This document shows positions 9,823-59,449 of a DNA stretch of 64,000 nucleotides, in pieces (the first letter of the stretch is position 1; every line of letters starts with the position of its first letter). The notes beneath the pieces were generated by a model. It did not search any database. It was given only the letters and a program-made list of their open reading frames with translations, and had not been told where the DNA came from. The stretch is taken from positions 53,940,001 through 54,004,000 of the forward strand of contig OZ024745.1 of assembly GCA_964016885.1 (NCBI GenBank). The letters run 5' to 3'. Origin of the DNA: Eledone cirrhosa. Lineage: Eukaryota. The position numbers and the translations under genes are program-made.

Positions 9823-10985
9823 TGAAGGCATGTGGTTTAGTGATTAGAGCGTTTGGCTGACGATTGTAACGTCGGACGTTCGATTCCTCGACTCAGCGGC
9901 TCGGAGCGAAGTGGTGATATTTGTGAACCGGTTGGACCATACACCTCCCTGAGCAGACTATATAGGAGCTTTGTATCATGTCTATCTGAGGCCTTTTCGA
10001 TTTTATCAGCCTTTTGTAAAAATAATTAACTGAGGACAGTAAATTAATTTATTATGGTTAACTGATGAGTCTTATTAATTTGGAATTTCACCTTAGCCCT
10101 CACAGGATCAACAGACATAACTGAAGTTTCAATGACTGAGACAGTAAGAATAGGGGAACATTCAAGTGGGAGAGATAGGTGCTTTTGAAAGCTGTGTGTA
10201 GGGAGTGAAGAAAGTTATGAAAAGAGAAAGGCGAAGAAAAGAAGGTACGGGCATGGTGTGATTATGAAAAAAATTGATAATAGTAATTAGTACGATTAGC
10301 AAAAGGGGTGAAGTTGCGGGTGATGATGATGATGATGATGAACAGAGTAAATGAAATGAATAGAAAATAACTTGAGTGGGTAGGTGGGCATATATCAATT
10401 GGTGGGGGTGAATAAAATATTCACTGAAAAATATTTACTGAAAAATATTTACTGAAAAATATTTACTGAAAAATAGAATTAGCTGAGAAAATATTGGTGT
10501 GGTATATACAATGATGATGATAGAGTTTAAGTAGAAAGAAACAGTAGAATAGTTATGATCTTTGTATTGTGGTAGTGGATGGAGGAAATCAGATGAAACG
10601 GTTCAGTAGATTTCTGCTTGTGGGTGATGATGGTGGTGGGGTATGGTAATGTATAAAACGGTGATGGTGATAAAAATTGCTTTGATAGGTAGGTGAGTGT
10701 ATCAAATATTTAGTGGATATTAGATTTACTTTGGCAAACAGTTGGTGACAATAATGATGAAGTAGGAGTAATTATGAGAAAGAAGAGAAAAAGGGATATC
10801 GAAAGAAAATGAAAAGGAAAAAGAAGTAAAAGAAGTAAAAGAAATTGATATGATATACAGAGTGGTGATGATGACGAAGAGAAAGAAGTGAAATTAGTGA
10901 AATTTGCAAAAGAGGAAGTTTAAAGTTATGTTGAATAGATGGATAGGTGAGTTTGTATCAATTGGTGGAGGTGGATAAAATATAT

Positions 10986-11152
10986 AATTGTTTCTATTTT
11001 TGGCACAAGGCCAGCAATTACTCAGTACATTACTGGTACTTTATTTTATCGACCCCGTAAGGATGAAAGGCAAAGTTAACCTCGGCGGGATTTGAACTCA
11101 GATCATAAAGGGACGTATCTCATGGTGTCCGACTCTACCGATACTACCAATC
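10986..11152 (-). mobile_element. SINE copy (same family as 996-1180)
   Basis: ggcacaaggccagcaatt...gaccccgtaaggatgaaaggcaaagttaacctcggcgggatttgaactcag. Confidence 0.85.
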
Positions 11153-11771: not shown

Positions 11772-11880
11772 TGGAATAGAATGAAACGAAATTTCATTTC
11801 TCACTCTTAGTACGGCACTTACTTAAATGTAAGTATGTATGTATACGTACATACATATATGTATACAGACGTACAGTAGC

Positions 11881-11961
<81 letters not shown>

Positions 11962-12131
11962 CCGGTACACATATATATATATGTACGTATCAGTTTAGCG
12001 GACGTTTATTATAACGCTCGCTTTGTCCGTTTGTAAACAAACTGACAGCCTGATTTATGCCGTACGGTGTTAAGGCAACCACGTCACCTTTTTGTTCAAC
12101 ACTGACACAGGAACGATGTACTAGTTTCAAG

Positions 12132-12132
<1 letters not shown>
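11772..12132 (-). mobile_element. Retrozyme-like element copy, homologous to the 468-bp repeat unit, starting with the 3' half of a hammerhead
   Basis: Minus strand begins GAAA-CTAG-TA-CATCG (12128-12114). The body aligns with 12895-13148 and with the 468-bp unit. It is flanked and interrupted by (TA)n. Confidence 0.7.
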
Positions 12133-12180
<48 letters not shown>

Positions 12181-12276: not shown

Positions 12277-12310
<34 letters not shown>

Positions 12311-12314
<4 letters not shown>

Positions 12315-12546
12315 GACGATATGTTATGTCTTCATTACGTTTATTGAGTAGTGACCTGCGTTTCAATATTTATCAGCTCAAGGTTCGATCTGTATCGATC
12401 TAGCCCGACTCATTACAACAACAGAGTTCCGAAGAGCTTTTGATTCCAGAGTCGGGCTAGATCGATACATATCGAACCTTGAGCTGATCAATCGCGAAAC
12501 GCGTGTCACTACTCAATAAACGTAATAAAGACATAACATGTCCTTT
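12311..12546. repeat. Inverted repeat, ~100-bp arms (12311-12411 / 12449-12546), each with a degenerate hammerhead-like core
   Basis: Arms are reverse complements. Plus arm reads gagCTGATCAatcgcGAAAcgcgtgtcactactcAATAAA; minus arm reads gagCTGATAAatattGAAAcgcaggtcactactcAATAAA. Confidence 0.8.
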
Positions 12547-12749
12547 TTATTATTACACTCTGCTTTGCTCTACACCTCTATACTTACTGGAAACTACGCA
12601 TCGAGTACTCACTCTGGTGAACCTACAGTAACTGGACGTTACAATCCCTAGCTATGTATATATATATATAACGAAGGAAGTGTGGTAAGCAACCAGATGG
12701 ACCATAACGCACCAGAGTACTCAATACATAGCAGAGTATAAATATTTAG

Positions 12750-12860
12750 TATAGAAATGGCTTCTACAGGGCTAGAACTGTTTCATTCGAAGGAAATCAT
12801 CAGGAAAGCCCTGATGATTTCCTTCGAATGAAACAGTTCTAGTCCTGTAGAAGGCATTTC

Positions 12861-12864: not shown

Positions 12865-12894
<30 letters not shown>

Positions 12895-12895
<1 letters not shown>

Positions 12896-13392
12896 AGTAT
12901 GCATGTATACGTACATACATATATGTATACAGACGTACAGTAGCATGCACATATATATATATATATATATATACATACACATATATATACATATGCATAC
13001 AGGTACACATACATATATGCACGTATCAGTTTAGCGGCGCTAACGTCGCTTTGTTCGTTTGTAAACAAACTGAACAGCCTGAATTTATGCCATACGGTGT
13101 TAAGGCAACCACGTCACCTTTTTGTTCAACACTGACACAGGAACGATGTGTCAGTGTTGAACAAAAAGGTGACGTGGTTGCCTTAACACCGTATGGCATA
13201 AATTCAGGCTGTTCAGTTTGTTTACAAACGAACAAAGCGACGTTAGCGCCGCTAAACTGATACGTGCATATATGTATGTGTACCTGTATGCATATGTATA
13301 TATATGTGTATGTATATATATATATATATATATATGTGCATGCTACTGTACGTCTGTATACATATATGTATGTACGTATACATGCATACTTA
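12895..13392. repeat. Near-perfect palindrome, ~245-bp arms, 7-nt loop (GGAACGA, 13140-13146); right arm continues unpaired to ~13445
   Basis: Arms are reverse complements, as shown by mirror-image ORFs 12772-13068(-) and 13218-13403(+). Confidence 0.95.
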
Positions 13393-13451
13393 CATTTAAG
13401 TAAGTGCCATACTAAGAGTGAGAAATGAAATTTCGTTTTCATTTTGTTTTA

Positions 13452-13538
<87 letters not shown>

Positions 13539-15996: not shown

Positions 15997-17651
15997 GATA
16001 AGAAAAAGGAGGAAATAGCACAACGGTTACATACAAAGGAAGTGGATAAAGTGATAGCATGGAGTAAAGAAGTTAAACTCCCACTTAACACAGTAAAATG
16101 CGCGTCAACCTTCTTTGGAACATTCAGTGCAGAAGCGAGGTGGCAACCAAATATTACTATTGACGGGTTAAGACTATCTTTTAACCCTAATCCCGTCTTT
16201 TTGGGCGTCACATATGATAGGACACTCTCCTTTGGGGAACATGTAAGATCTGCCAAACACTTCAACAGCGCGCCAACATCCTGCGCACTCTTGGGGGTAC
16301 CTCCTGGGGCTGGCATACCGCAGATCTTCGTCAAGTATACATCGCAGTGCATCACAGCCTGGCCGAGTACGGCTCCCCAGGCTGGGCTCCCTGGTTGTCA
16401 GCCAGTAACATCGGCAAGCTTGAAAGAGCACAACTAGAAGTAGCTCGAGCGATCACTGGACATTTACGCACAACATCAACTGAGGCTGTCCTACTTGAAG
16501 CACACCTTCCACCGTTGGAATGCCGCTTTCATGCTCTCTCGCTCTTGAAAGCGGATGAATGGGCATATCTCCCCACCTCCGATCATCGAAACCAAGTACT
16601 CAATGCTAACGTAAGGCGCCGACTCCGCCGTCTTGATTGGCGATGTAGACAGCTGCCAGCCCTTGATCGTCTTGGCATACCCTCGACAACAGACACCCAA
16701 CTACAACATAAGAAGCCGCCGTGGGAATTACTACCACCAATCCCTGCTACCTTTATCCCAGTGAGCAAATCAATGCCAGTAGCACTACAACTTAAAGCGG
16801 CACTGGATCATCTATCAACACCCCCTCCCCCGGCCGACATTGGCGTGTATACAGATGGATTAACATGCGACAGTACAACCAATGGCGGTGCCGATCTTGT
16901 AATCATCCAAAATGAAGAAGTAGTTCACGAGTGGCACACTCCGACGGGCGCTCGTAGCAGTTCCTTTCATTCCGAAAGAATTGCATTCAAACAAGCCCTC
17001 CTATGGTTACAGGCAGACACCAGCTGGGAGTCCTCCAATGTCGTCTGTGACTGCAAGTCGCTGGTTCAAACAGTGAACAACCCCTTCCCCCATGACCCTT
17101 TTCTTACCGAGCTGCAAGGGATCGCTAACAAAATCACAAAGGGGAGAACCTTAGCAGCTGTCTGGGTCCCGGGGCACTGAAACATCAAAGGGAATGAACT
17201 GGCGGACGCCCAAGCGAATCAAGGCTCAGCATCTACTCAACTGGAAAGTTCAATCGATGCCGCCACCCGACGCGCCATAATTCGCCGGGAATTAAACCCA
17301 CCACCGATCCAGCATCAACGTCTACAATCAGTCTTTATCCGCCACCCAAATGAAGAGAGTGAGCAAACTCTCTCTAAAGCAGATAGGAACCATCTCGTCT
17401 GCTTCCGCAGTGGACATCACACGTCATTAAGAAGATGGCTCTATATGATCGGAAATCAACACATGCCGTCTGTGCGGAGAGGAAAAAAGAATCCTCCGAA
17501 CATCTTTGGATGAGATGTCCGGCCTTGATGGTGGATTGTTATCACCACCATCTCGACTCCAGCATGGATGAACTCGTGCGTCTCCCACACGCCAGTCTAG
17601 CGCTACTGCGGGTAATCCTCAGGCGCCTGCGGTAAGAAAACAAACAAACAA
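15997..17651 (+). mobile_element. 5'-truncated LINE with RT C-terminus, RNase H and a Cys/His finger (I-group, Ingi/Nimb-like); pseudogenised
   Basis: FLGVTYDRTLSFGEHV and LERAQLEVARAITGHLRTTSTEAVLLEAHLPPL (RT thumb). RNase H motifs VYTDG, SSFHSE, VCDCKS and WVPGH*NIKGNELAD. ESSEHLWMRCP finger and an (A/C)-rich tail. Frameshifts and stops present. Candidate TSD ACAAAACAACAACAAC at 15981-15996 and 17652-17667. Confidence 0.85.
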
Positions 17652-21589: not shown

Positions 21590-21985
21590 GACTTCTGAGT
21601 TAGGCATAAGGCCAGAAATTTTGGGGGAGGGCAAGTCGATTAAATCGACCCCAGTGCATTACTGGTACTTTATTTTATCGACCCCGTAAGGATGAAAGGC
21701 AAAGCTAAACCCGGCAGGAATTGAACTCTGAACATAAAGGGCCGTAACTCTATGCTGTAAAGAATGTTGTTTGACGCTCTACCGATACAGCCAACCCACC
21801 AACCTAACAATAATACTTTTGGCACAAGGCCAGCAATTATCCCAGTGCATTACTGGTACTTTATTTTATCTACCCTGTAGGGATGACAGACAAAGTTGAC
21901 CTCGGCGGGATGTGAATTCAGAACTTAAAGGGCCATAACTCTATGCTACAAAGTATGGTGTCCAACGCTCTACCGATTCTGCTAA
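21590..21985 (-). mobile_element. Two tandem near full-length SINE copies (about 21590-21800 and 21815-21985)
   Basis: Both contain ccagtgcattactggtactttattttatc...gatga(aagg/caga)caaag...gaactc...gggcc(g/a)taactctatgct. Confidence 0.85.
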
Positions 21986-22029
21986 CTTGTCTCACATTAG
22001 CCACACTGGTCTCACATTAGGGCAAGCAA

Positions 22030-35621: not shown

Positions 35622-35675
<54 letters not shown>

Positions 35676-35782
35676 ATAATAATAAATTTGAAGACTAAAA
35701 TCCAAAGAGGGCTCGAAAAGGATAACTATATATCAAATATATAAGAACCGTTGAGCAAATATTTATTAAAATAACAGATTAA

Positions 35783-35833
35783 AGTTTAAGCAAAGAATCG
35801 CTGCTTTCACTCTTAACGGGATCTTCTGAAACT
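35783..35833 (-). ncRNA. Hammerhead-like motif at the 3' end of the PLE (mirror copy at 40258-40308 on plus)
   Basis: AGUUU-CAGAAGA-UCCCGUUAAG(A/G)GU-GAAA-GCAGCGAUUCUUUGC-UU-AAACU, followed by AAUAAA. Stem I and stem III pair, but the core has CAGA in place of CUGA in both arms. Confidence 0.5.
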
Positions 35834-36790
35834 AACAAAGTCAATCTGTAAACGCAGAAGTGGATATTTAAAAACACGTTGCAACCGGAGGAAGACAGGA
35901 AAACGATACTTTGGTTCGTGGAAACGTTCCCTGGCAAAGAACGGGAAAAAACGAATATAATACGTCATGAATAGGAGCGGTGAAAAACAATTACACGCAA
36001 AGACAGAACCACGTTTATGGTATAAAAGAAGTCGTAGACTAATGTTCTCTTAGGTGGTTCATAGAGACGTTCTCTGGCAATGAACGGAAAAAACGAAGAT
36101 AATACGTCATATGTGGAGCGTAGAGAACAATTGCACGCAAAGACAAAACCACGTAAATGGTATAGCTGAAGTCGTAGACTAAAATTCTAACTAGGAAACC
36201 GAAAGAATCTCCGCTTCAGAGTTAAGAATAAAGTAAATAAAATACAATACCGAGGTAATAGAAATTAAATAAATACATACACGCATGCAAATACGTACGT
36301 ACACAAGCATACGCGAAAACACTTGCCATAGGTATACAAAACCACGGACATTTAAATATGTGTCTGTGTGTGTGCGTGTATAAAAATAAATAAATAAATA
36401 AATAAACGTATATAAATAAACGTATATAAATAAATAAATACGTATATAACAAGCGCACACACATACCTACATGTAAATACAAAAATGTTCGGATACGTAC
36501 GTCAACCAAAACATGAAGTACACATAAACACACACCCTACATACATACGAACCTGCATACTCATACGAACGCAAAACTCCCGTATACACATAACCAAACC
36601 ATATGTACTAGAATATATAAAAATTATACGCCGTAACATATACAATCAAATATACGTACGAGAAAGTATACGTACCTTCATAAAATATACAGGTAATATA
36701 TACTTACCTATGCAAATAAGTAATGGTATAAACATAACATATACTTAGCTACCACATCAAGACGTAAAATATCCACGTATAGATCGTACT

Positions 36791-38700
36791 ATCCGTTAGG
36801 GTATAATGTGGGGCTGTAATACAGGAATGTTGTGTGCAATTTATGTTTACAAGCCGAAATTGCCTCAGATTTTTTGTTTAAGATGTGGTCTGTGGAGTAG
36901 AGTATTTCCAGGGCCTCAGCGGCGCAGGGGTCACATGGTCTTTATTTCCGTTATACGATCTAGCCCTAGCTAGGATCTCCCAGTGTAACTTATATTGGGT
37001 GTGGTTGTCTTTTAGACTCCAGATATAAGCTGAAAGTGACGTCATATTCCTTCTTAGAGGGTAACGAAAAGAATGGGTATGCATGTAAAGACGCTGCTTG
37101 AATCTATTGGCGGTTAACCCTATGTAGGCCCTACGGGACGTGGGTGTTTCAACCTTACATTTGTAGACAATGTTACTAGAGAGGCATTTCCCGGATAGGG
37201 GGTAATCAACCCGATTCCTACAATTACAGTTAGTACTAACTACATGGTTGCACGTGTTCCTACAGCTAGGTAGTTTAGCTAAATTTGAAGGTGTGATGTT
37301 AGGAGTCGTAGAGTAAGAAATTTTAATAGTATTTCTATTAAAAATTTTACTATATTTATGTGTAGGGGAAAATGCTTCGTAATAAGGGAAAGAAAGATCT
37401 TAGCTAATGGTGTAGCCACCTCCATATTATAGGGTGGGTTATACCAACAAATGCGACGGGATCTATTTCTTCTAGGTCTATTTTCGTACTCTGTATATGC
37501 TACCTTATCGACAAATCCACTCCGAGCGAGAGCTTCATTGTAATAAGTGGAATGGTCGTTGAAAATATGCTCGTTAGTAGATAGACGGGAAAGCCTCAAC
37601 GAAACGTTTCTTACCAGGTTCTTGGTTATGCTGGCAGGATGGTTGGAATGCTTACTTATGTAATTAAGCGTATCATTCGGCTTTCTCTACGGGTAATACA
37701 ACCCATTCGATAAATCGAGGGTAACGTCGAGGTAATTAACGACCGAGAGATTGGCCTCAACCTGTATAGAGAGGTTGAAGCCTTTAAAGAAGGCTGTGAG
37801 TTCTTTTCTGAACCTGTCGCAAGCGCGAGGTCCGCACTTAGTCATGGTCAAAAGACCATCATCACGGTACAAACCACCGCCCGCGTTGGGGAATTCGTCT
37901 TTGATAGAGAAAAGAAGGAAAAGGCCAATAAGATCAGTAACCTCCGCAGAATCGCTGGCGCCCATACTCACGTCGAATGGGGTACTATTGGATTTTTTAA
38001 TCCAAATAGAGTCGTCGAAATTAATCACCGACTTACGGGCATTGAGGATGACATCAACTTCGAAATCCTTAACCACTGTGAGTGTTTTAGCGAAATTTAT
38101 AGCTCTAAGGAGAAGTGGTAAAGTGATGGAGGAGTAGTAATTGTTGATGTCGAATTGGATAAAACGGCAATGTTCCTTGTTGCATATGCCGTTGAACCAA
38201 TCAATCACCACGAAAGAATTGTTCCACAGTGCAAGAGGGGCCAAACTTCTAATTTCAGGTATAATTCTATCAAGAATCCTTTTACTAAGTCTACCTAAAT
38301 CGGACTTCGTAGGGTTAATAAGCCGAATAGAGGGGTTGTTCGGAAAATTGGATTTGTGATCCTTCAGGGTAAAGTGGGGAGAGATAGGGTCCAGAGGTTC
38401 GGTCCGGTCCAGGATGTTGAGATCAGAGGTGATTTTAAACCCAGCATCGTTGATTTCATTGATGACGCACCGATTAGTTTTACGGTAATCCTTAGTTACA
38501 GCATTATGTAGTAGTTGATGGTAAGTACTGAGCTCCACTTGATATAGGTTGCCAGTTTTGTCGGAATGGACGTGCACGGCATTAGAATCCTTAATAGAAC
38601 GAATTCTATTCTTCAGGTCCTGCTGGAAGGAATTGCTCCTATTCCGAAATTTGATACTCCGTATGAGTTCCAAGACATCATTTTCGAATGGTAGCAATGC
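36791..38700 (-). pseudogene. Penelope-like RT plus C-terminal GIY-YIG endonuclease ORF, disrupted
   Basis: RT motifs IRLINPTKSDLG, IQFDINNYYSSI, FDVSMGASDSAEV and GLYRDDGL, then YLDVTLDL and WYNPPYN. An in-frame TAG at 37687-37689 (YYP*RKPNDT), a frameshift near 37365 (KHFP/THKYSKIFNRNT) and another in the EN domain disrupt it. Confidence 0.9.
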
Positions 38701-38784
38701 AATAAATATAGTAAATATAGTAAATATAGTAAATATAATAAATATAGTAAATATAGTAACATTTTTAATAGAAATACTATTAAA

Positions 38785-39330
38785 ATGACTTACTCTACGA
38801 CTCCTAACCTTGCACATAACATCACAGCTTCAAATTTAGCTAAACTACCTAGCCGTAGGAACACGTGCAGCCCTGTAGTTAGTACTAACTGTAATTGTAG
38901 GAATCGGGTTGATTGCCCCCTATCCGGGAAATGCCTCTCTCGTAACATTGTCTACAAATGTAAGGTTGAAACACCCACGTACCGTAGGGCCTACATAGGG
39001 TTAACCGCCAATAGATTCAAGCAGCGTCTTTACATGCATACCCATTCTTTTCGTTACCCTCTAAGAAGGAATATGACGTCACTTTCAGCTTATATCTGGA
39101 GTCTAAAAGACAACCACACCCAATATAAGTTACACTGGGAGACCCTAGCTAGGGCTAGATCGTATAACGGAAATAAAAGACCATGTGACCTCTGCGTCGC
39201 TGACACCCTGGAAATACTCTACGCAACAGACCACATCTTAAACAAAAAATGTGAGGCAATTTCAGCTTGTAAACATAAATTGCACAAAACTTTCCTGTAT
39301 TACAGCCCCACATTTTACCCTAACGGATAG
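38785..39330 (+). pseudogene. Open GIY-YIG endonuclease segment in the inverted arm (partial copy of the PLE ORF 3' end)
   Basis: CNCRNRVDCPLSGKC linker, NIVYKC...YIGLT...FKQRLYMH, CDLC, LNKKCE...CKH. The ATG is probably incidental, since the other arm reads ATT at that codon. Confidence 0.85.
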
Positions 39331-41029
39331 TACGAAGTATACGTGGATATTTTACGTCTTGATGTGGTAGCTAAGTATATGTTATGTTTATACCATTACT
39401 TATTTGCATAGGTAAGTATATATTACCTGTATGTTTTATGAAGGTACGTATACTTTCTCGTACGTATATTTGATTGTATATGTTATGGCGTATAATTTTT
39501 ATATATTCTGGTACATATGGTTTGGTTATGTGTATACGGGAGTTTTGCGTCCGTGTGAGTATGCAGGTTCGTACGTATGTAGGGTGTGTGTATATGTGTA
39601 CTTCATGTTTTGGTTGACGTACGTATCCGAACATTTGTGTATTTACATGTAGGTATGTGTGTGCGCTTGTTATATACGTATTTATTTATATACGTTTATT
39701 TATTTATTTATTTGTATACACGCACACACACATATTTATATGTGCGTGGTTTTGTATACCTATGGCAAGTGTTTTCGCGTATGCTTGTGTACGTACGTAT
39801 TTGCATGCGTGTATGTATTTATTTAATTTCTATTACCTCGGTATTGTATTTTATTTACTTTATTCTTAACCCTGAAGCGGAGATTCTTTCGGTTTCCTAG
39901 TTAGAATTTTAGTCTACGACTTCAGCTATACCATTTACGTGGTTTTGTCTTTGCGTGCAATTGTTCCCCACGCTCCACATATGACGTATTATTTTCGTTT
40001 TTTCCGTTCATTGCCAGATAACGTCTCTTTGAACCACCTAAGAGAACATTAGTCTACGACTTCTTTTATACCATAAACGTGGTTCTGTCTTTGCGTGTAA
40101 TTGTTTTTCACCGCTCCTATTAATGACGTATTATATTCGTTTTTTCCCGTTCTTTGCCAGGGAACGTTTCCGCGAACCAAAGTATCGTTTTCCTGTCTTC
40201 CTCCGGTTGCAACGTTTTTTGAAATCTTCACTTCTGCGTTTACAGATTGACTTTGTTAGCTTCAGAAGATCCCGTTAAGGGTGAAAGCGGCGATTCCTTG
40301 CTTAAACTTTAATCTGTTATTTTAATATATATATATATAGCTGGAATTGTGAGTTGATCGTTTTTTATTTATTCTATCGTCTCAGTATACCTTCGCTATT
40401 CTGTTTTTATTTTTCGAATGGTTGAGATCTAATGCCAATTTATTTTGAAATATATCTCATTTAAGTTAAAATTTTTATGGAAGATTTTCACTCTCCTATA
40501 TTTGTTCTTACGATTTAGTTTCTTGTTCTCAACATTTGAGTGAAATAATAGTAAATGTGTTTTGTTAACGTGTTTTGCATTTGGGTGTAAAGAAGTATTG
40601 AAATATTGTTATAATTAATAACAATGTCACCCCTGGATTGTGAATTGTCTAGCGGTTAAATCCTGGAAAGATTTTAGTTTATTTCCCGTATGCTGTATCA
40701 GCTTTTCTAGATGATAAATCTATAAAACATTTCGATGACAAACTGCAAAACATATTCAGGCATGAATGCAATAAAAAGAAATATGAATACATTAACTTAC
40801 TGAAAAAGCATTTTAAACTGACTCTACAGGATCTAGAAAACAACGATAAAAAATGTAAAATATTATGCAAAAGCGATAAAAGTAACCGATTTTAAATTAC
40901 GAACAAAGATTAATACGTTTCAAAAACAACATAAATTCGTTAAAATTAATAAAGGGCACAACTAAAAATTAAATTTAGTAAATGAATTAATTAAGGCAAG
41001 AAAATTTATGAATTAAGAAAACGCTCAGT

Positions 41030-55630: not shown

Positions 55631-55698
55631 TAGTGTGTCTAACCTAGCCCAGAAATAGCCGTCGAAACGCCTTGAGCTCTGCCGTCGGGTTCACACTT

Positions 55699-55752
<54 letters not shown>

Positions 55753-56938
55753 GTGTGTATATATATATTTCGAGCACATAAACTATTCTCTTTTATTTAA
55801 TTGCCTTAAAACTTTTAGTGATAATGTTTCAAAAATATATAAGCTGTATAGAATTGTGTTTTTCTTACAACATACCCTGATGCATTAAAGACATTCAAAC
55901 GACAAACGCACACAAAGACACACACACACACTCTCACCCCCACACCCCGCATATATATGTATACGTATCTTCTTTGTAGTCGTATATGTTGGATTCTCTT
56001 GTTCCGTCTTATCTTTCACATATACGTTTTTCACAGCTGTAATTAATTTTCAATTAGTTATTGGGAACTATTAGTGAAAAATACTTGTTTATACGAATTA
56101 AGAGGTGTCTTAAGCCGAAATAAGCTCTGTAAACCATTCTATCTAATGCACCCATTCACGCACACACATAGATACACACATTTATATATTCAAGTCTTTT
56201 AACTGACATTTAGTACCGACTATAATTATCTTTAAGGTGGCGAATTGGCACACTCGTTAAACGTCGGATACAATGCTTTGCAGTATTCGTTTCGGTTCTC
56301 TAATCTCTGAGTTCAAATCCTGCCGAGATCAACATTGTCTTTCATTCATTCAAGGTCGATAAAATAAGTACGAGTCTTGTACTGGGGACGAGTCTTCCTC
56401 TATATCTCTTTTTCACTTCCATTCTCTTACCTAACTATCATCAAGCATTGAGTACCATTAGGTTTAAAACGACTAAGACATACCTTATATCATGGCGTCA
56501 TCTCTAAAACTAAATTATGAACTATGAGATCAGTAAATGGCCGTGGAAAAAAGACATGCAGTATACTTCACAAGATACCTCTTAATTCGTCATTAACCAG
56601 TATTTTTCACTAATAGTTCTCAATAACTAATTGAAAATTAATTACAGCTGTGAAAAACGTATATGTGAAAGATAAGACGGAACAAGAAAATCCAACATAT
56701 ACGACTACAAAGAAGATACGTATATATATATATATATATATATATGCGGGGTGTGGGGGTGAGAGTGTGTGTGTGTGTCTTTGTGTGCGTTTGTCGTTTG
56801 AATGTCTTTAATACATCAGGGTATGTTGTAAGAAAAACACAATTCTATACAGCTTATATATTTTTTGAAACATTATCACTAAAGGTTTTAAGGCAATTAA
56901 ATAAAAGAGAATAGTTTATGTGCTCGAAATATATATAT

Positions 56939-57020
<82 letters not shown>

Positions 57021-57088
57021 AAGTGTGAACCCGACGGCAGAGCTCAAGCCGTTTCGACGGCTATTTCTGGGCTAGGTTAGACACACTA
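55631..57088. repeat. Large inverted repeat (arms 55631-56111 / 56572-57088) capped by a 74-bp GC-rich module; 460-bp spacer contains a SINE
   Basis: Arms are reverse complements (e.g. tttcgagcacataaactattctc vs gagaatagtttatgtgctcgaaa). The SINE is at about 56235-56390 on plus. Confidence 0.9.
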
Positions 57089-57361: not shown

Positions 57362-57614
<253 letters not shown>

Positions 57615-57780: not shown

Positions 57781-58014
57781 TATATATATACAATTAAGTT
57801 AAAGATGTACATCCATATATGTATACTGAAATACTAGTATGTATATGAATACACACACGTATACATATGTAGATGTACCAAGTTTTTTTCACTGGTCACT
57901 TTACTGTGAGTGGCCAGCTATTCTGTATGTAAGCACACAGACAAACCGGTTTTTAGAGTCATACTGGTTTTTGAGGAAACACCTTTCCTCTATTCTCCAG
58001 AAAGCCAGACAAGG

Positions 58015-58059
58015 AATATTGAACTAGTTTCGTTGTTGTTACAACTCATCAGCAATATT
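58015..58059 (-). ncRNA. Minimal type I hammerhead ribozyme, copy 1
   Basis: AAUAUUG-CUGAUGA-GUUGU(AACA)ACAAC-GAAA-CUAG-UU-CAAUAUU. It has a perfect 7-bp stem I, a 5-bp stem II, an intact core and a palindromic AACUAGUU stem III. Predicted cut after GUU, between 58022 and 58021. Confidence 0.9.
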
Positions 58060-58482
58060 TACCTATCTTCCGGCCTCTCTAGAGAATCGTAAAAGCACAT
58101 ATCGTTATATGCTTTTTCTATGATAATTAGTAGTGGGCAGACTAATTTGCATAGAGTGTGAGTAAGTACCGGTTCAACGGAGACGATAAAAACAAATAAC
58201 GAAACGAAATTAAATTTCGTTTCGTTTGTAACTCACTTTTGTATGACTGACGCTTAAACAATTAAGTTAAAGATGTACATCCATATATGTATACTGAAAT
58301 ACTAGTATGTATATGAATACACACACGTATACATATGTAGATGTATCAAGTTTTTTTCACTGGTCACTTTACTGTGAGTGGCCAGCTATTCTGTATGTAA
58401 GCACACAGACAAACCGGTTTTTAGAGTCATACTGGTTTTTGAGGAAACACCTTTCCTCTATTCTCCAGAAAGCCAGACAAGG

Positions 58483-58527
58483 AATATTGAACTAGTTTCG
58501 TTGTTGTTACAACTCATCAGCAATATT
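58483..58527 (-). ncRNA. Minimal type I hammerhead ribozyme, copy 2
   Basis: Identical to 58015-58059, offset 468. Confidence 0.9.
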
Positions 58528-58950
58528 TACCTATCTTCCGGCCTCTCTAGAGAATCGTAAAAGCACATATCGTTATATGCTTTTTCTATGATAATTAGTA
58601 GTGGGCAGACTAATTTGCATAGAGTGTGAGTAAGTACCGGTTCAACGGAGACGATAAAAACAAATAACGAAACGAAATTAAATTTCGTTTCGTTTGTAAC
58701 TCACTTTTGTATGACTGACGCTTAAACAATTAAGTTAAAGATGTACATCCATATATGTATACTGAAATACTAGTATGTATATGAATACACACACGTATAC
58801 ATATGTAGATGTACCAAGTTTTTTTCACTGGTCACTTTACTGTGAGTGGCCAGCTATTCTGTATGTAAGCACACAGACAAACCGGTTTTTAGAGTCATAC
58901 TGGTTTTTGAGGAAACACCTTTCCTCTATTCTCCAGAAAGCCAGACAAGG

Positions 58951-58995
58951 AATATTGAACTAGTTTCGTTGTTGTTACAACTCATCAGCAATATT
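58951..58995 (-). ncRNA. Minimal type I hammerhead ribozyme, copy 3
   Basis: Identical to 58015-58059, offset 936. Confidence 0.9.
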
Positions 58996-59449
58996 TACCT
59001 ATCTTCCGGCCTTTCTAGAGAATCGTAAAAGCACATATCGTTATATGCTTTTTCTATGATAATTAGTAGTGGGCAGACTAATTTGCATAGAGTGTGAGTA
59101 AGTACCGGTTCAACGGAGACGATAAAAACAAATAACGAAACGAAATTAAATTTCGTTTCGTTTGTAACTCACTTTTGTATGACTGACGCTTAAACAATTA
59201 AGTTAAAGATGTACATCCATATATGTATACTGAAATACTAGTATGTATATGAATACACACACGTATACATATGTAGATGTACCAAGTTTTTTTCACTGGT
59301 CACTTTACTGTGAGTGGCCAGCTATTCTGTATGTAAGCACACAGACAAACCGGTTTTTAGAGTCATACTGGTTTTTGAGGAAACACCTTTCCTCTATTTT
59401 TCAAATAAATCTTTGAAGAATTAAATCACCGTGATAAACAATCTATCAA

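Follow-up and report, generated by a model that had tools for sequence, protein, structure and literature searches.

According to the accessible portions of their descriptions (Cervera and de la Pena 2020, PMC7229834; Li et al. 2026, 10.64898/2026.07.22.740005), the non-LTR retrozymes of metazoans are non-coding, GC-poor units, a few hundred bp long and arranged in tandem, with one type I hammerhead per unit, a self-paired monomer and co-occurrence with PLEs; those of mussels measure 350-390 bp. The accessible accounts of PLEs (PMC4209133; Craig et al. 2021; PMC3846280; PMC11167929) describe pseudo-LTR (pLTR) hammerheads with a palindromic helix III, some of which, listed in the supplement of PMC4209133, have U at position 17. 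The available text of the same work (Cervera and de la Pena 2014, PMC4209133) states that the arrangement with a short palindromic helix III needs a dimer, and a palindromic helix III is also noted in repeat-type hammerheads (PMC3088659, accessible part). PLE insertions, as described in the available portions of 10.1101/2021.04.23.441226, PMC3846280 and PMC11167929, show head-to-head inversion, a one-sided tail and AT-rich targets. No report of a retrozyme in cephalopods was found in the accessible literature, and the supplement of PMC7229834 may list further molluscs; in the accessible part of PMC8967140, Penelope is one of the cephalopod repeats listed, and ribozymes go unmentioned.

The window, i.e., the whole 64-kb stretch of DNA analysed here, looks like animal DNA and contains three loci of one repeat family: the partial monomer A1, the palindrome A2 (12894-13452) and the tandem array B (Table 1). 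The family is probably a non-autonomous, Penelope-mobilised non-LTR retrozyme, its subfamily B having a complete type I hammerhead motif on the minus strand. A nameless satellite and a dispersed repeat would thereby be assigned to a named class of mobile RNA, whose putative activity can be tested at the bench.

Copies of the family and their homology

On sequence grounds, A1, A2 and the 468-bp array belong to a single repeat family, which has two diverged subfamilies, A and B. An earlier note on this DNA had reported collinear plus-strand similarity between two loci 46 kb apart, and this is borne out: every motif pair quoted there is present and in the same order (at 11783, 12029, 12059 and 12102 in A and at 58201, 57925, 57958 and 58006 in B, recurring every 468 bp). 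The check proposed in that note, a pairwise alignment with shuffled controls, was carried out as local alignment with 1000 dinucleotide shuffles of each partner. Against B, the A1 core (11985-12132) scored 186 (shuffle means 85.6 and 85.5, maxima 133 and 142) and the part at 11772-11883 scored 202 (means 101 and 91, maxima 150 and 134); for both parts the real score was reached by none of the 1000 shuffles, whichever partner was shuffled, and chance similarity of A1 and B is excluded by this test. Against the reverse strand of B the same parts scored 69 and 106, which is not significant. When 544 tiles of the window were compared on both strands, the best non-family tile scored 141 versus 177-186 for full B tiles. 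The A1 core and B are identical in 83 of 141 aligned columns (59%), and since this identity is too low for blastn, the match is absent from its output (E<=0.01). A search of the window with covariance model R1 found only seven known family pieces and one 9.6-bit chance match.

The units of array B have 35% GC, and the first three differ by 2 substitutions. A1 is bordered on both sides by (TA)n, and a further (TA)n lies within it at 11884-11961. The arms of A2 are identical over 246 bp (12894-13139 versus 13147-13392), and its one-sided tail of ~60 bp (13393-13452) belongs to the right arm only. Five of the six outer junctions of the family abut (TA)n, the exception being the high end of array B; within such flanks a target-site duplication is unreadable. 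Among stop-to-stop frames of at least 110 aa none overlaps 57790-59398 or A1, and three run across the AT-rich palindrome of A2. In the window, A1, A2 and B have no adjoining ORF for an RT or endonuclease, and no LTR pair was seen with blastn.

Table 1. Copies of the repeat family, hammerhead motifs and predicted helices in the window.
Feature	Position	Strand	Basis or remark
Copy A1, partial monomer	11772..12132	-	begins 14 nt before predicted cut site, stops ~15 nt past hairpin Hg
Copy A2, left arm	12894..13148	-	5' end at predicted cut site; 3' end is the Hf loop, adjoining (TA)n
Copy A2, right arm	13147..13452	+	head-to-head versus left arm; tail adjoins (TA)n
A2 inversion junction	13140..13149	.	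7-nt spacer plus 3-nt overlap 13147-13149; ambiguity read from sequence
Array B, 3.4 copies of 468-bp unit	57790..59398	-	low end is the Hf loop, adjoining (TA)n
Complete type I hammerhead motif 1	58015..58059	-	motif scan; Rfam HH9 relaxed match
Complete type I hammerhead motif 2, identical to motif 1	58483..58527	-	motif scan
Complete type I hammerhead motif 3, identical to motif 1	58951..58995	-	motif scan
Hammerhead 3' half in A1	12112..12128	-	partial-motif list: GAAA, palindromic helix III, A17 at 12119
Hairpin Ha	A1 12072..12090; B 58441-58458	-	folds; one-base register shift in B
Long-range 7-bp helix Hb	A1 12065-12059/11816-11810; A2 13191-13197/13406-13412; B 58432-58426/58247-58241	- (11810..12065)	folds
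Hairpin Hc, YUUA loop	A1 12025..12046; B 58390-58409	-	8/8 A1 pairs still pair in B
Hairpin Hd (hairpin of the earlier note)	A1 11997..12022; A2 13033-13050; B 58360-58385	-	folds
Hairpin He, long, AU-rich, asymmetric internal loop	A1 11843..11990; B 58276-58345	-	folds
Hairpin Hf	A1 11821-11834; B 58253-58266	-	beside one observed 3'-end site
Hairpin Hg	A1 11778-11807; B 58198-58226	-	beside the other observed 3'-end site

The hammerhead motif

A motif scan of both strands of the window returned five candidates, three of them complete and all in B, the other two having a stem II of 1 bp. The complete motifs lie on the minus strand only, spaced by 468 bp, one per unit in consecutive tandem units. 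In motif 1 a stem I of 7 bp is followed by CUGAUGA (58052-58046), a stem II of 5 bp, GAAA (58031-58028) and U17 at 58022; helix III consists of one A-U pair and a palindromic tetraloop. A stricter hammerhead scan found 3 motifs in the window versus 0 in 200 shuffled windows. Rfam gave no matches in the 64-kb window at the gathering score. The best relaxed match in B is Hammerhead_HH9 (RF02275), on the minus strand, with 37.7 bits (gathering score 52) and an E-value of 1.1e-07; it is full-length and keeps all modelled pairs, but B is devoid of the five-base loop of helix III and its score is below 52. The predicted hammerhead of B is a member of the hammerhead clan and not of the HH9 family. 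The miRNA and snoRNA matches obtained at relaxed Rfam thresholds reflect only hairpins and (TA)n.

Because helix III has a single pair and its loop is palindromic, self-cleavage of B, which is predicted, would need a dimeric hammerhead. The local fold of the B hammerhead has -7.5 kcal/mol, under the -5 cut-off given in the accessible text of Li et al. (10.64898/2026.07.22.740005), where eight of nine predicted retrozymes were inactive in vitro. The predicted monomeric active fold of B lies ~7.6 kcal/mol above the minimum, and pairing between two palindromes can extend over 6 bp. As cleavage triplet B has GUU and A has GUA; PMC1636495 yielded no rate data on hammerheads with GUU.

The half motif of A1 has its predicted cut at 12119/12118 and a presumed 3' strand of stem I; the CUGANGA core is absent, and (TA)n starts at 12133. 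The CUGANGA half of the A subfamily was not seen in any copy, i.e., in A1, in A2 or in the contigs described below, which cover A1 only to 12124, with 12125-12152 excluded as repeat. The plus-strand motif 'actagtttc', common to A and B, is helix III plus GAAA read backwards.

The predicted minus-strand fold and its conservation

From cut to cut the B monomer folds on the minus strand with -151.5 kcal/mol (z -10.3, 0/100 shuffles as low), and on the plus strand with -130.5 kcal/mol (z -6.5). Its ends are predicted to pair over ~28 bp, closing into stem I exactly at unit length, and the predicted pair probabilities of stems I and II in the monomer are 0.63-0.99. When A1, A2 and B were folded independently, the same helix series was obtained in all three. 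Hb is intact in every copy, with two pairs altered on both sides across copies; its two-sided change between A1 and A2 involves CpG on both arms, and deamination could produce it. The weakest-supported shared helix is Hd, because its pairs are out of register: three of its four outer pairs are broken in B in the sequence-only alignment. Hd also includes a G-T pair, which suits the plus strand better than the minus strand. The earlier note had described a hairpin of different sequence at the same position in both loci; the aligned place in B does hold one, in another register of pairs. The sequence quoted there, agcggcg..cgtcgct, had been placed in 11772-12132 and actually belongs to A2 (13033-13050), the A1 version being that of Table 1.

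Tests of the fold gave mixed results. Of B's confident pairs, 60/65 still pair in A2 versus a null of 46.9 +/- 2.9 (0/5000, at all four gap settings), and A2's pairs are kept in B above the null in one of four gap settings only; antisense folds in the same pair-retention test were not significant. Two-sided pair changes between A and B never exceeded the null, and those between A1 and A2 numbered 2 versus 0.11 expected (20/5000). When the three sequences are aligned, 88% of cells are paired, with two-sided changes at 3 pairs (20/500 shuffles). Isolated mismatches in B stems, in the minus reading, are G-U five times and A-C once, and a strand-neutral mismatch count was uninformative for A1 and A2. 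In these models the G-U bias and the folding energy favour a minus-strand RNA. Given the mixed tests, selection on a minus-strand fold is likely, short of proof of R-scape standard. The covariation expected for such a fold is suggestive, its support moderate at most, with three distinct sequences and two-sided A-B changes within the null. The reading of the loci as an old structured non-coding RNA under selection for its fold thus stands in part: a single family with a conserved fold is supported, and the RNA strand is minus.

Copies in other sequence data

Six runs in four studies, one of which runs may be the source of the window, contain 59-75% of B's sampled words, and none of the runs listed with B words is labelled as RNA. 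For the A1 core, run X1 yielded 1231 contigs, with 327, 420, 400 and 84 in four identity bands, and therefore contains many diverged A copies. In other runs the core was found in 2 contigs of X4, in 2 contigs of X5 and in none of X6, counts from which nothing follows. Contig cover on the query 11985-12152 was limited to 11985-12124, with 12125-12152 excluded as repeat. As read by eye from the tables, frequent variants restore or swap Hc pairs (12043, 12027, 12044), one frequent variant (12015) weakens an Hd pair on the minus strand, and in one, both partners of a mismatched pair are lost (12002, 12017). At 12090-12091 contigs have loose ends, also read by eye, which correspond to subfamilies with Watson-Crick pairing in Ha in place of the G-U of A1; in the X5 loose-end subfamily, known from a single contig, Ha carries B's four-base loop.

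A pattern scan for hammerheads gave none in genome contigs and none in viral contigs. In metagenome contigs it gave 25 hammerhead loci, of which only L002 and L019 have a stem II of at least 5 bp; neither matches the family beyond the ribozyme. In L019 a motif of the same type lies ~430 nt after the end of a GIY-YIG-like ORF (Atlas lead 0.95; Pfam blank). L002 (701-738) is a solitary hammerhead with the same palindromic helix III and with A-U at the base of stem II, as the A1 remnant would imply.

Junctions of A2 and 3' ends

The 3-nt overlap of the A2 arms spans the predicted cut site, and the left arm runs up to that site; a random truncation would be expected within one base of the cut ~1% of the time. 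This junction is a single event, and the local overlap could attract a junction regardless. An inversion junction spanning the predicted cut site is not described in the accessible parts of the PLE accounts compared here. Four 3' ends of the family fall at two places ~60 nt apart, one in the Hf loop (A2 left arm, array B) and the other ~15 nt past Hg (A1, A2 right arm). The evidence on junctions thus comprises one inversion and four 3' ends.

For unaided DNA snap-back at the A2 junction the folding energy is unfavourable. According to the accessible portion of Frangieh et al. (2024, PMC11167929), the PLE protein starts at two internal sites, which set the tail, and extends each of the two target strands; hammerhead cleavage was dispensable in vitro and no reads ended at the cut site. 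In the available text of Arkhipova et al. (2013, PMC3846280), head-to-head PLE palindromes are read as self-priming on an antisense template, with the question left open. By analogy, two cDNAs joined at the overlap would fit the start sites in the accessible part of Frangieh et al. (PMC11167929) better than unaided snap-back.

A wider reading, which we offer tentatively and regard as possible rather than probable, is that the copies preserve, as fossils, steps of Penelope replication. The RT would run off a 5' end made by the hammerhead and then snap back or join a second cDNA, giving rise to inversions; ribozyme-cut RNA would be the template in vivo, making an antisense template unnecessary, and the Hb/Hf/Hg fold would be a cis signal that sets two RT start sites ~60 nt apart. 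If this were true, the family, with its many copies, would be a natural reporter of what the hammerhead does in PLEs and of how their inversions form. An inversion junction at the predicted cut site would hint at how head-to-head inversions arise, and in a family of such copy number inversion junctions and 3' ends can be counted directly and their positions compared with those of the cut site and hairpins.

Classification of the family

At the sequence level, array B falls under the definition of a non-LTR retrozyme in the accessible text of PMC7229834 and 10.64898/2026.07.22.740005, its 468-bp unit being slightly over the 150-450 bp range of the former and within the 51-972 bp of the latter. 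It has in common with described metazoan retrozymes the features listed at the outset. The differences concern helix III, which has two pairs and a tetraloop in the metazoan retrozymes and one pair and a palindromic tetraloop in B, as in the amphibian HHR_Amex1 type; the triplets GUU (B) and GUA (A); and an internal fold visible across subfamilies only ~59% identical. With PLE pseudo-LTR hammerheads B shares the palindromic helix III and U17, whereas its stem I, of 7 bp plus an extension, is long compared with minimal PLE hammerheads. The inverted, 5'-truncated layout of A2 with its one-sided tail, together with the (TA)n targets, has the appearance of PLE-mobilised sequence. Unlike PLEs, the family copies have no RT or endonuclease ORF, and the tail of A2 is ~60 bp versus the 30-40 bp reported in the accessible PLE accounts.

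If the family is a Penelope-mobilised retrozyme, array B would be transcribed by read-through, and its minus-strand RNA would be cleaved as a dimeric hammerhead, releasing 468-nt monomers that would probably be circularised. A PLE protein acting in trans would perform target-primed reverse transcription into (TA)n, beginning at one of two sites, near Hf and Hg. Array B, and also A1, which crosses the cut site, would result if the RT went round a circle or along a multimer that had not been cut; a cut linear RNA copied to its 5' end, with subsequent snap-back or annealing to a second cDNA via the 3-nt overlap, would generate A2. The one PLE-like element of the window shows no convincing pLTR homology to the family: five of six comparisons were not significant, and the sixth (A2, opposite orientation, 0/300) includes an AT-rich tract.

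Alternatively, the copies could be pseudo-LTR fragments of an autonomous PLE, likely of the Neptune type, with no circular RNA stage, and B could have arisen from a DNA-level tandem duplication or a partial tandem. The truncation of A1 and A2, the inversion and tail of A2, the L019 motif of the same type behind a GIY-YIG-like ORF and, in the accessible part of 10.64898/2026.07.22.740005, the homology of frog retrozymes and pLTRs agree with such an origin, but B consists of 3.4 near-identical units without an ORF of at least 110 aa, the ends of its monomer are predicted to pair over ~28 bp exactly at unit length, and no ORF adjoins any copy in the window. We consider this origin unlikely.

A host-domesticated gene family of structured ncRNA, selected for a cellular function, would explain a fold common to copies only ~59% identical, and it might use a promoter of the snRNA type. 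Such a promoter has been ascribed to newt satellite 2. The octamer ATTTGCAT, present in each B unit, points the same way, but it occurs elsewhere in the window too; moreover, no Rfam family was matched at threshold, and the truncation of copies within (TA)n, the tailed inversion, the self-cleavage motif and the more than 1000 diverged contigs of a single run are all typical of a mobile element, which makes a host gene very improbable. Of the earlier proposal of a non-coding RNA family the shared fold is retained, while the anatomy (tandem array, inverted copy, microsatellite flanks, 1231 contigs) is that of a mobile element and not of a host ncRNA gene.

Non-autonomous Helitron/Helentron elements end at CTRR after a subterminal hairpin, and we take the CTAG-T near the A1 end, the internal microsatellite and the terminal hairpins to resemble elements of this type. 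Even with these features and the better fit of the Hd G-T pair to the plus strand, a rolling-circle DNA element with hairpins acting at the DNA level, or else a chance AT-rich similarity, is scarcely credible, as CTAG forms the loop of helix III in a complete hammerhead motif, with B running on through it, the G-U bias and folding energy point to a minus-strand RNA, and chance is excluded by 0/1000 shuffles.

Other features of the window

The PLE-like element at 35672-40324 contains an RT-type frame (37687-38829, minus strand) and GIY-YIG-like frames and is inverted head-to-head; its ORFs received no name from Pfam or PDB, and Atlas gave leads only (RT-type). It is flanked by (TA)n on both sides and has a 95-bp tail on one arm, a geometry as in A2, as well as a 140-bp tandem within the terminal repeat. 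A degenerate hammerhead-like motif is present at 40263 (plus strand) and at 35828 (minus strand). The octamer ATTTGCAT is located at 58145, 58613 and 59081, once in each B unit, and at 39402 and 39799 in the terminal repeat of the PLE-like element.

Between A1 and A2 there are two palindromic inserts. The one at 12307-12553, with 105-nt arms that are 87% complementary, lies beside (TA)n and has a degenerate core-like motif in each arm. The other, short and placed between TA-rich flanks at 12756-12860, has CUGAUGA and then GAAAC in each arm, without stem I; it may be a MITE or the end of a further head-to-head PLE. A hairpin-rich element of 70 bp is present in three copies (55633-55702 on the minus strand, 57017-57086 and 57543-57612), each between (TA)n runs, and these lie within a larger inverted duplication (55769-56111 versus 56572-56928).

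A frame at 16221-17180 with weak RNase H and RVT_3 matches, under the Pfam cut-offs, is probably a LINE remnant. The segment 22876-29342 is an array of 308 copies of a 21-bp tandem repeat with strong T skew and higher-order repetition. It is also worth noting that a SINE-like repeat of 100-170 bp is dispersed in many copies, among them those at 981-1179, 10979-11128 and 21635-21986.
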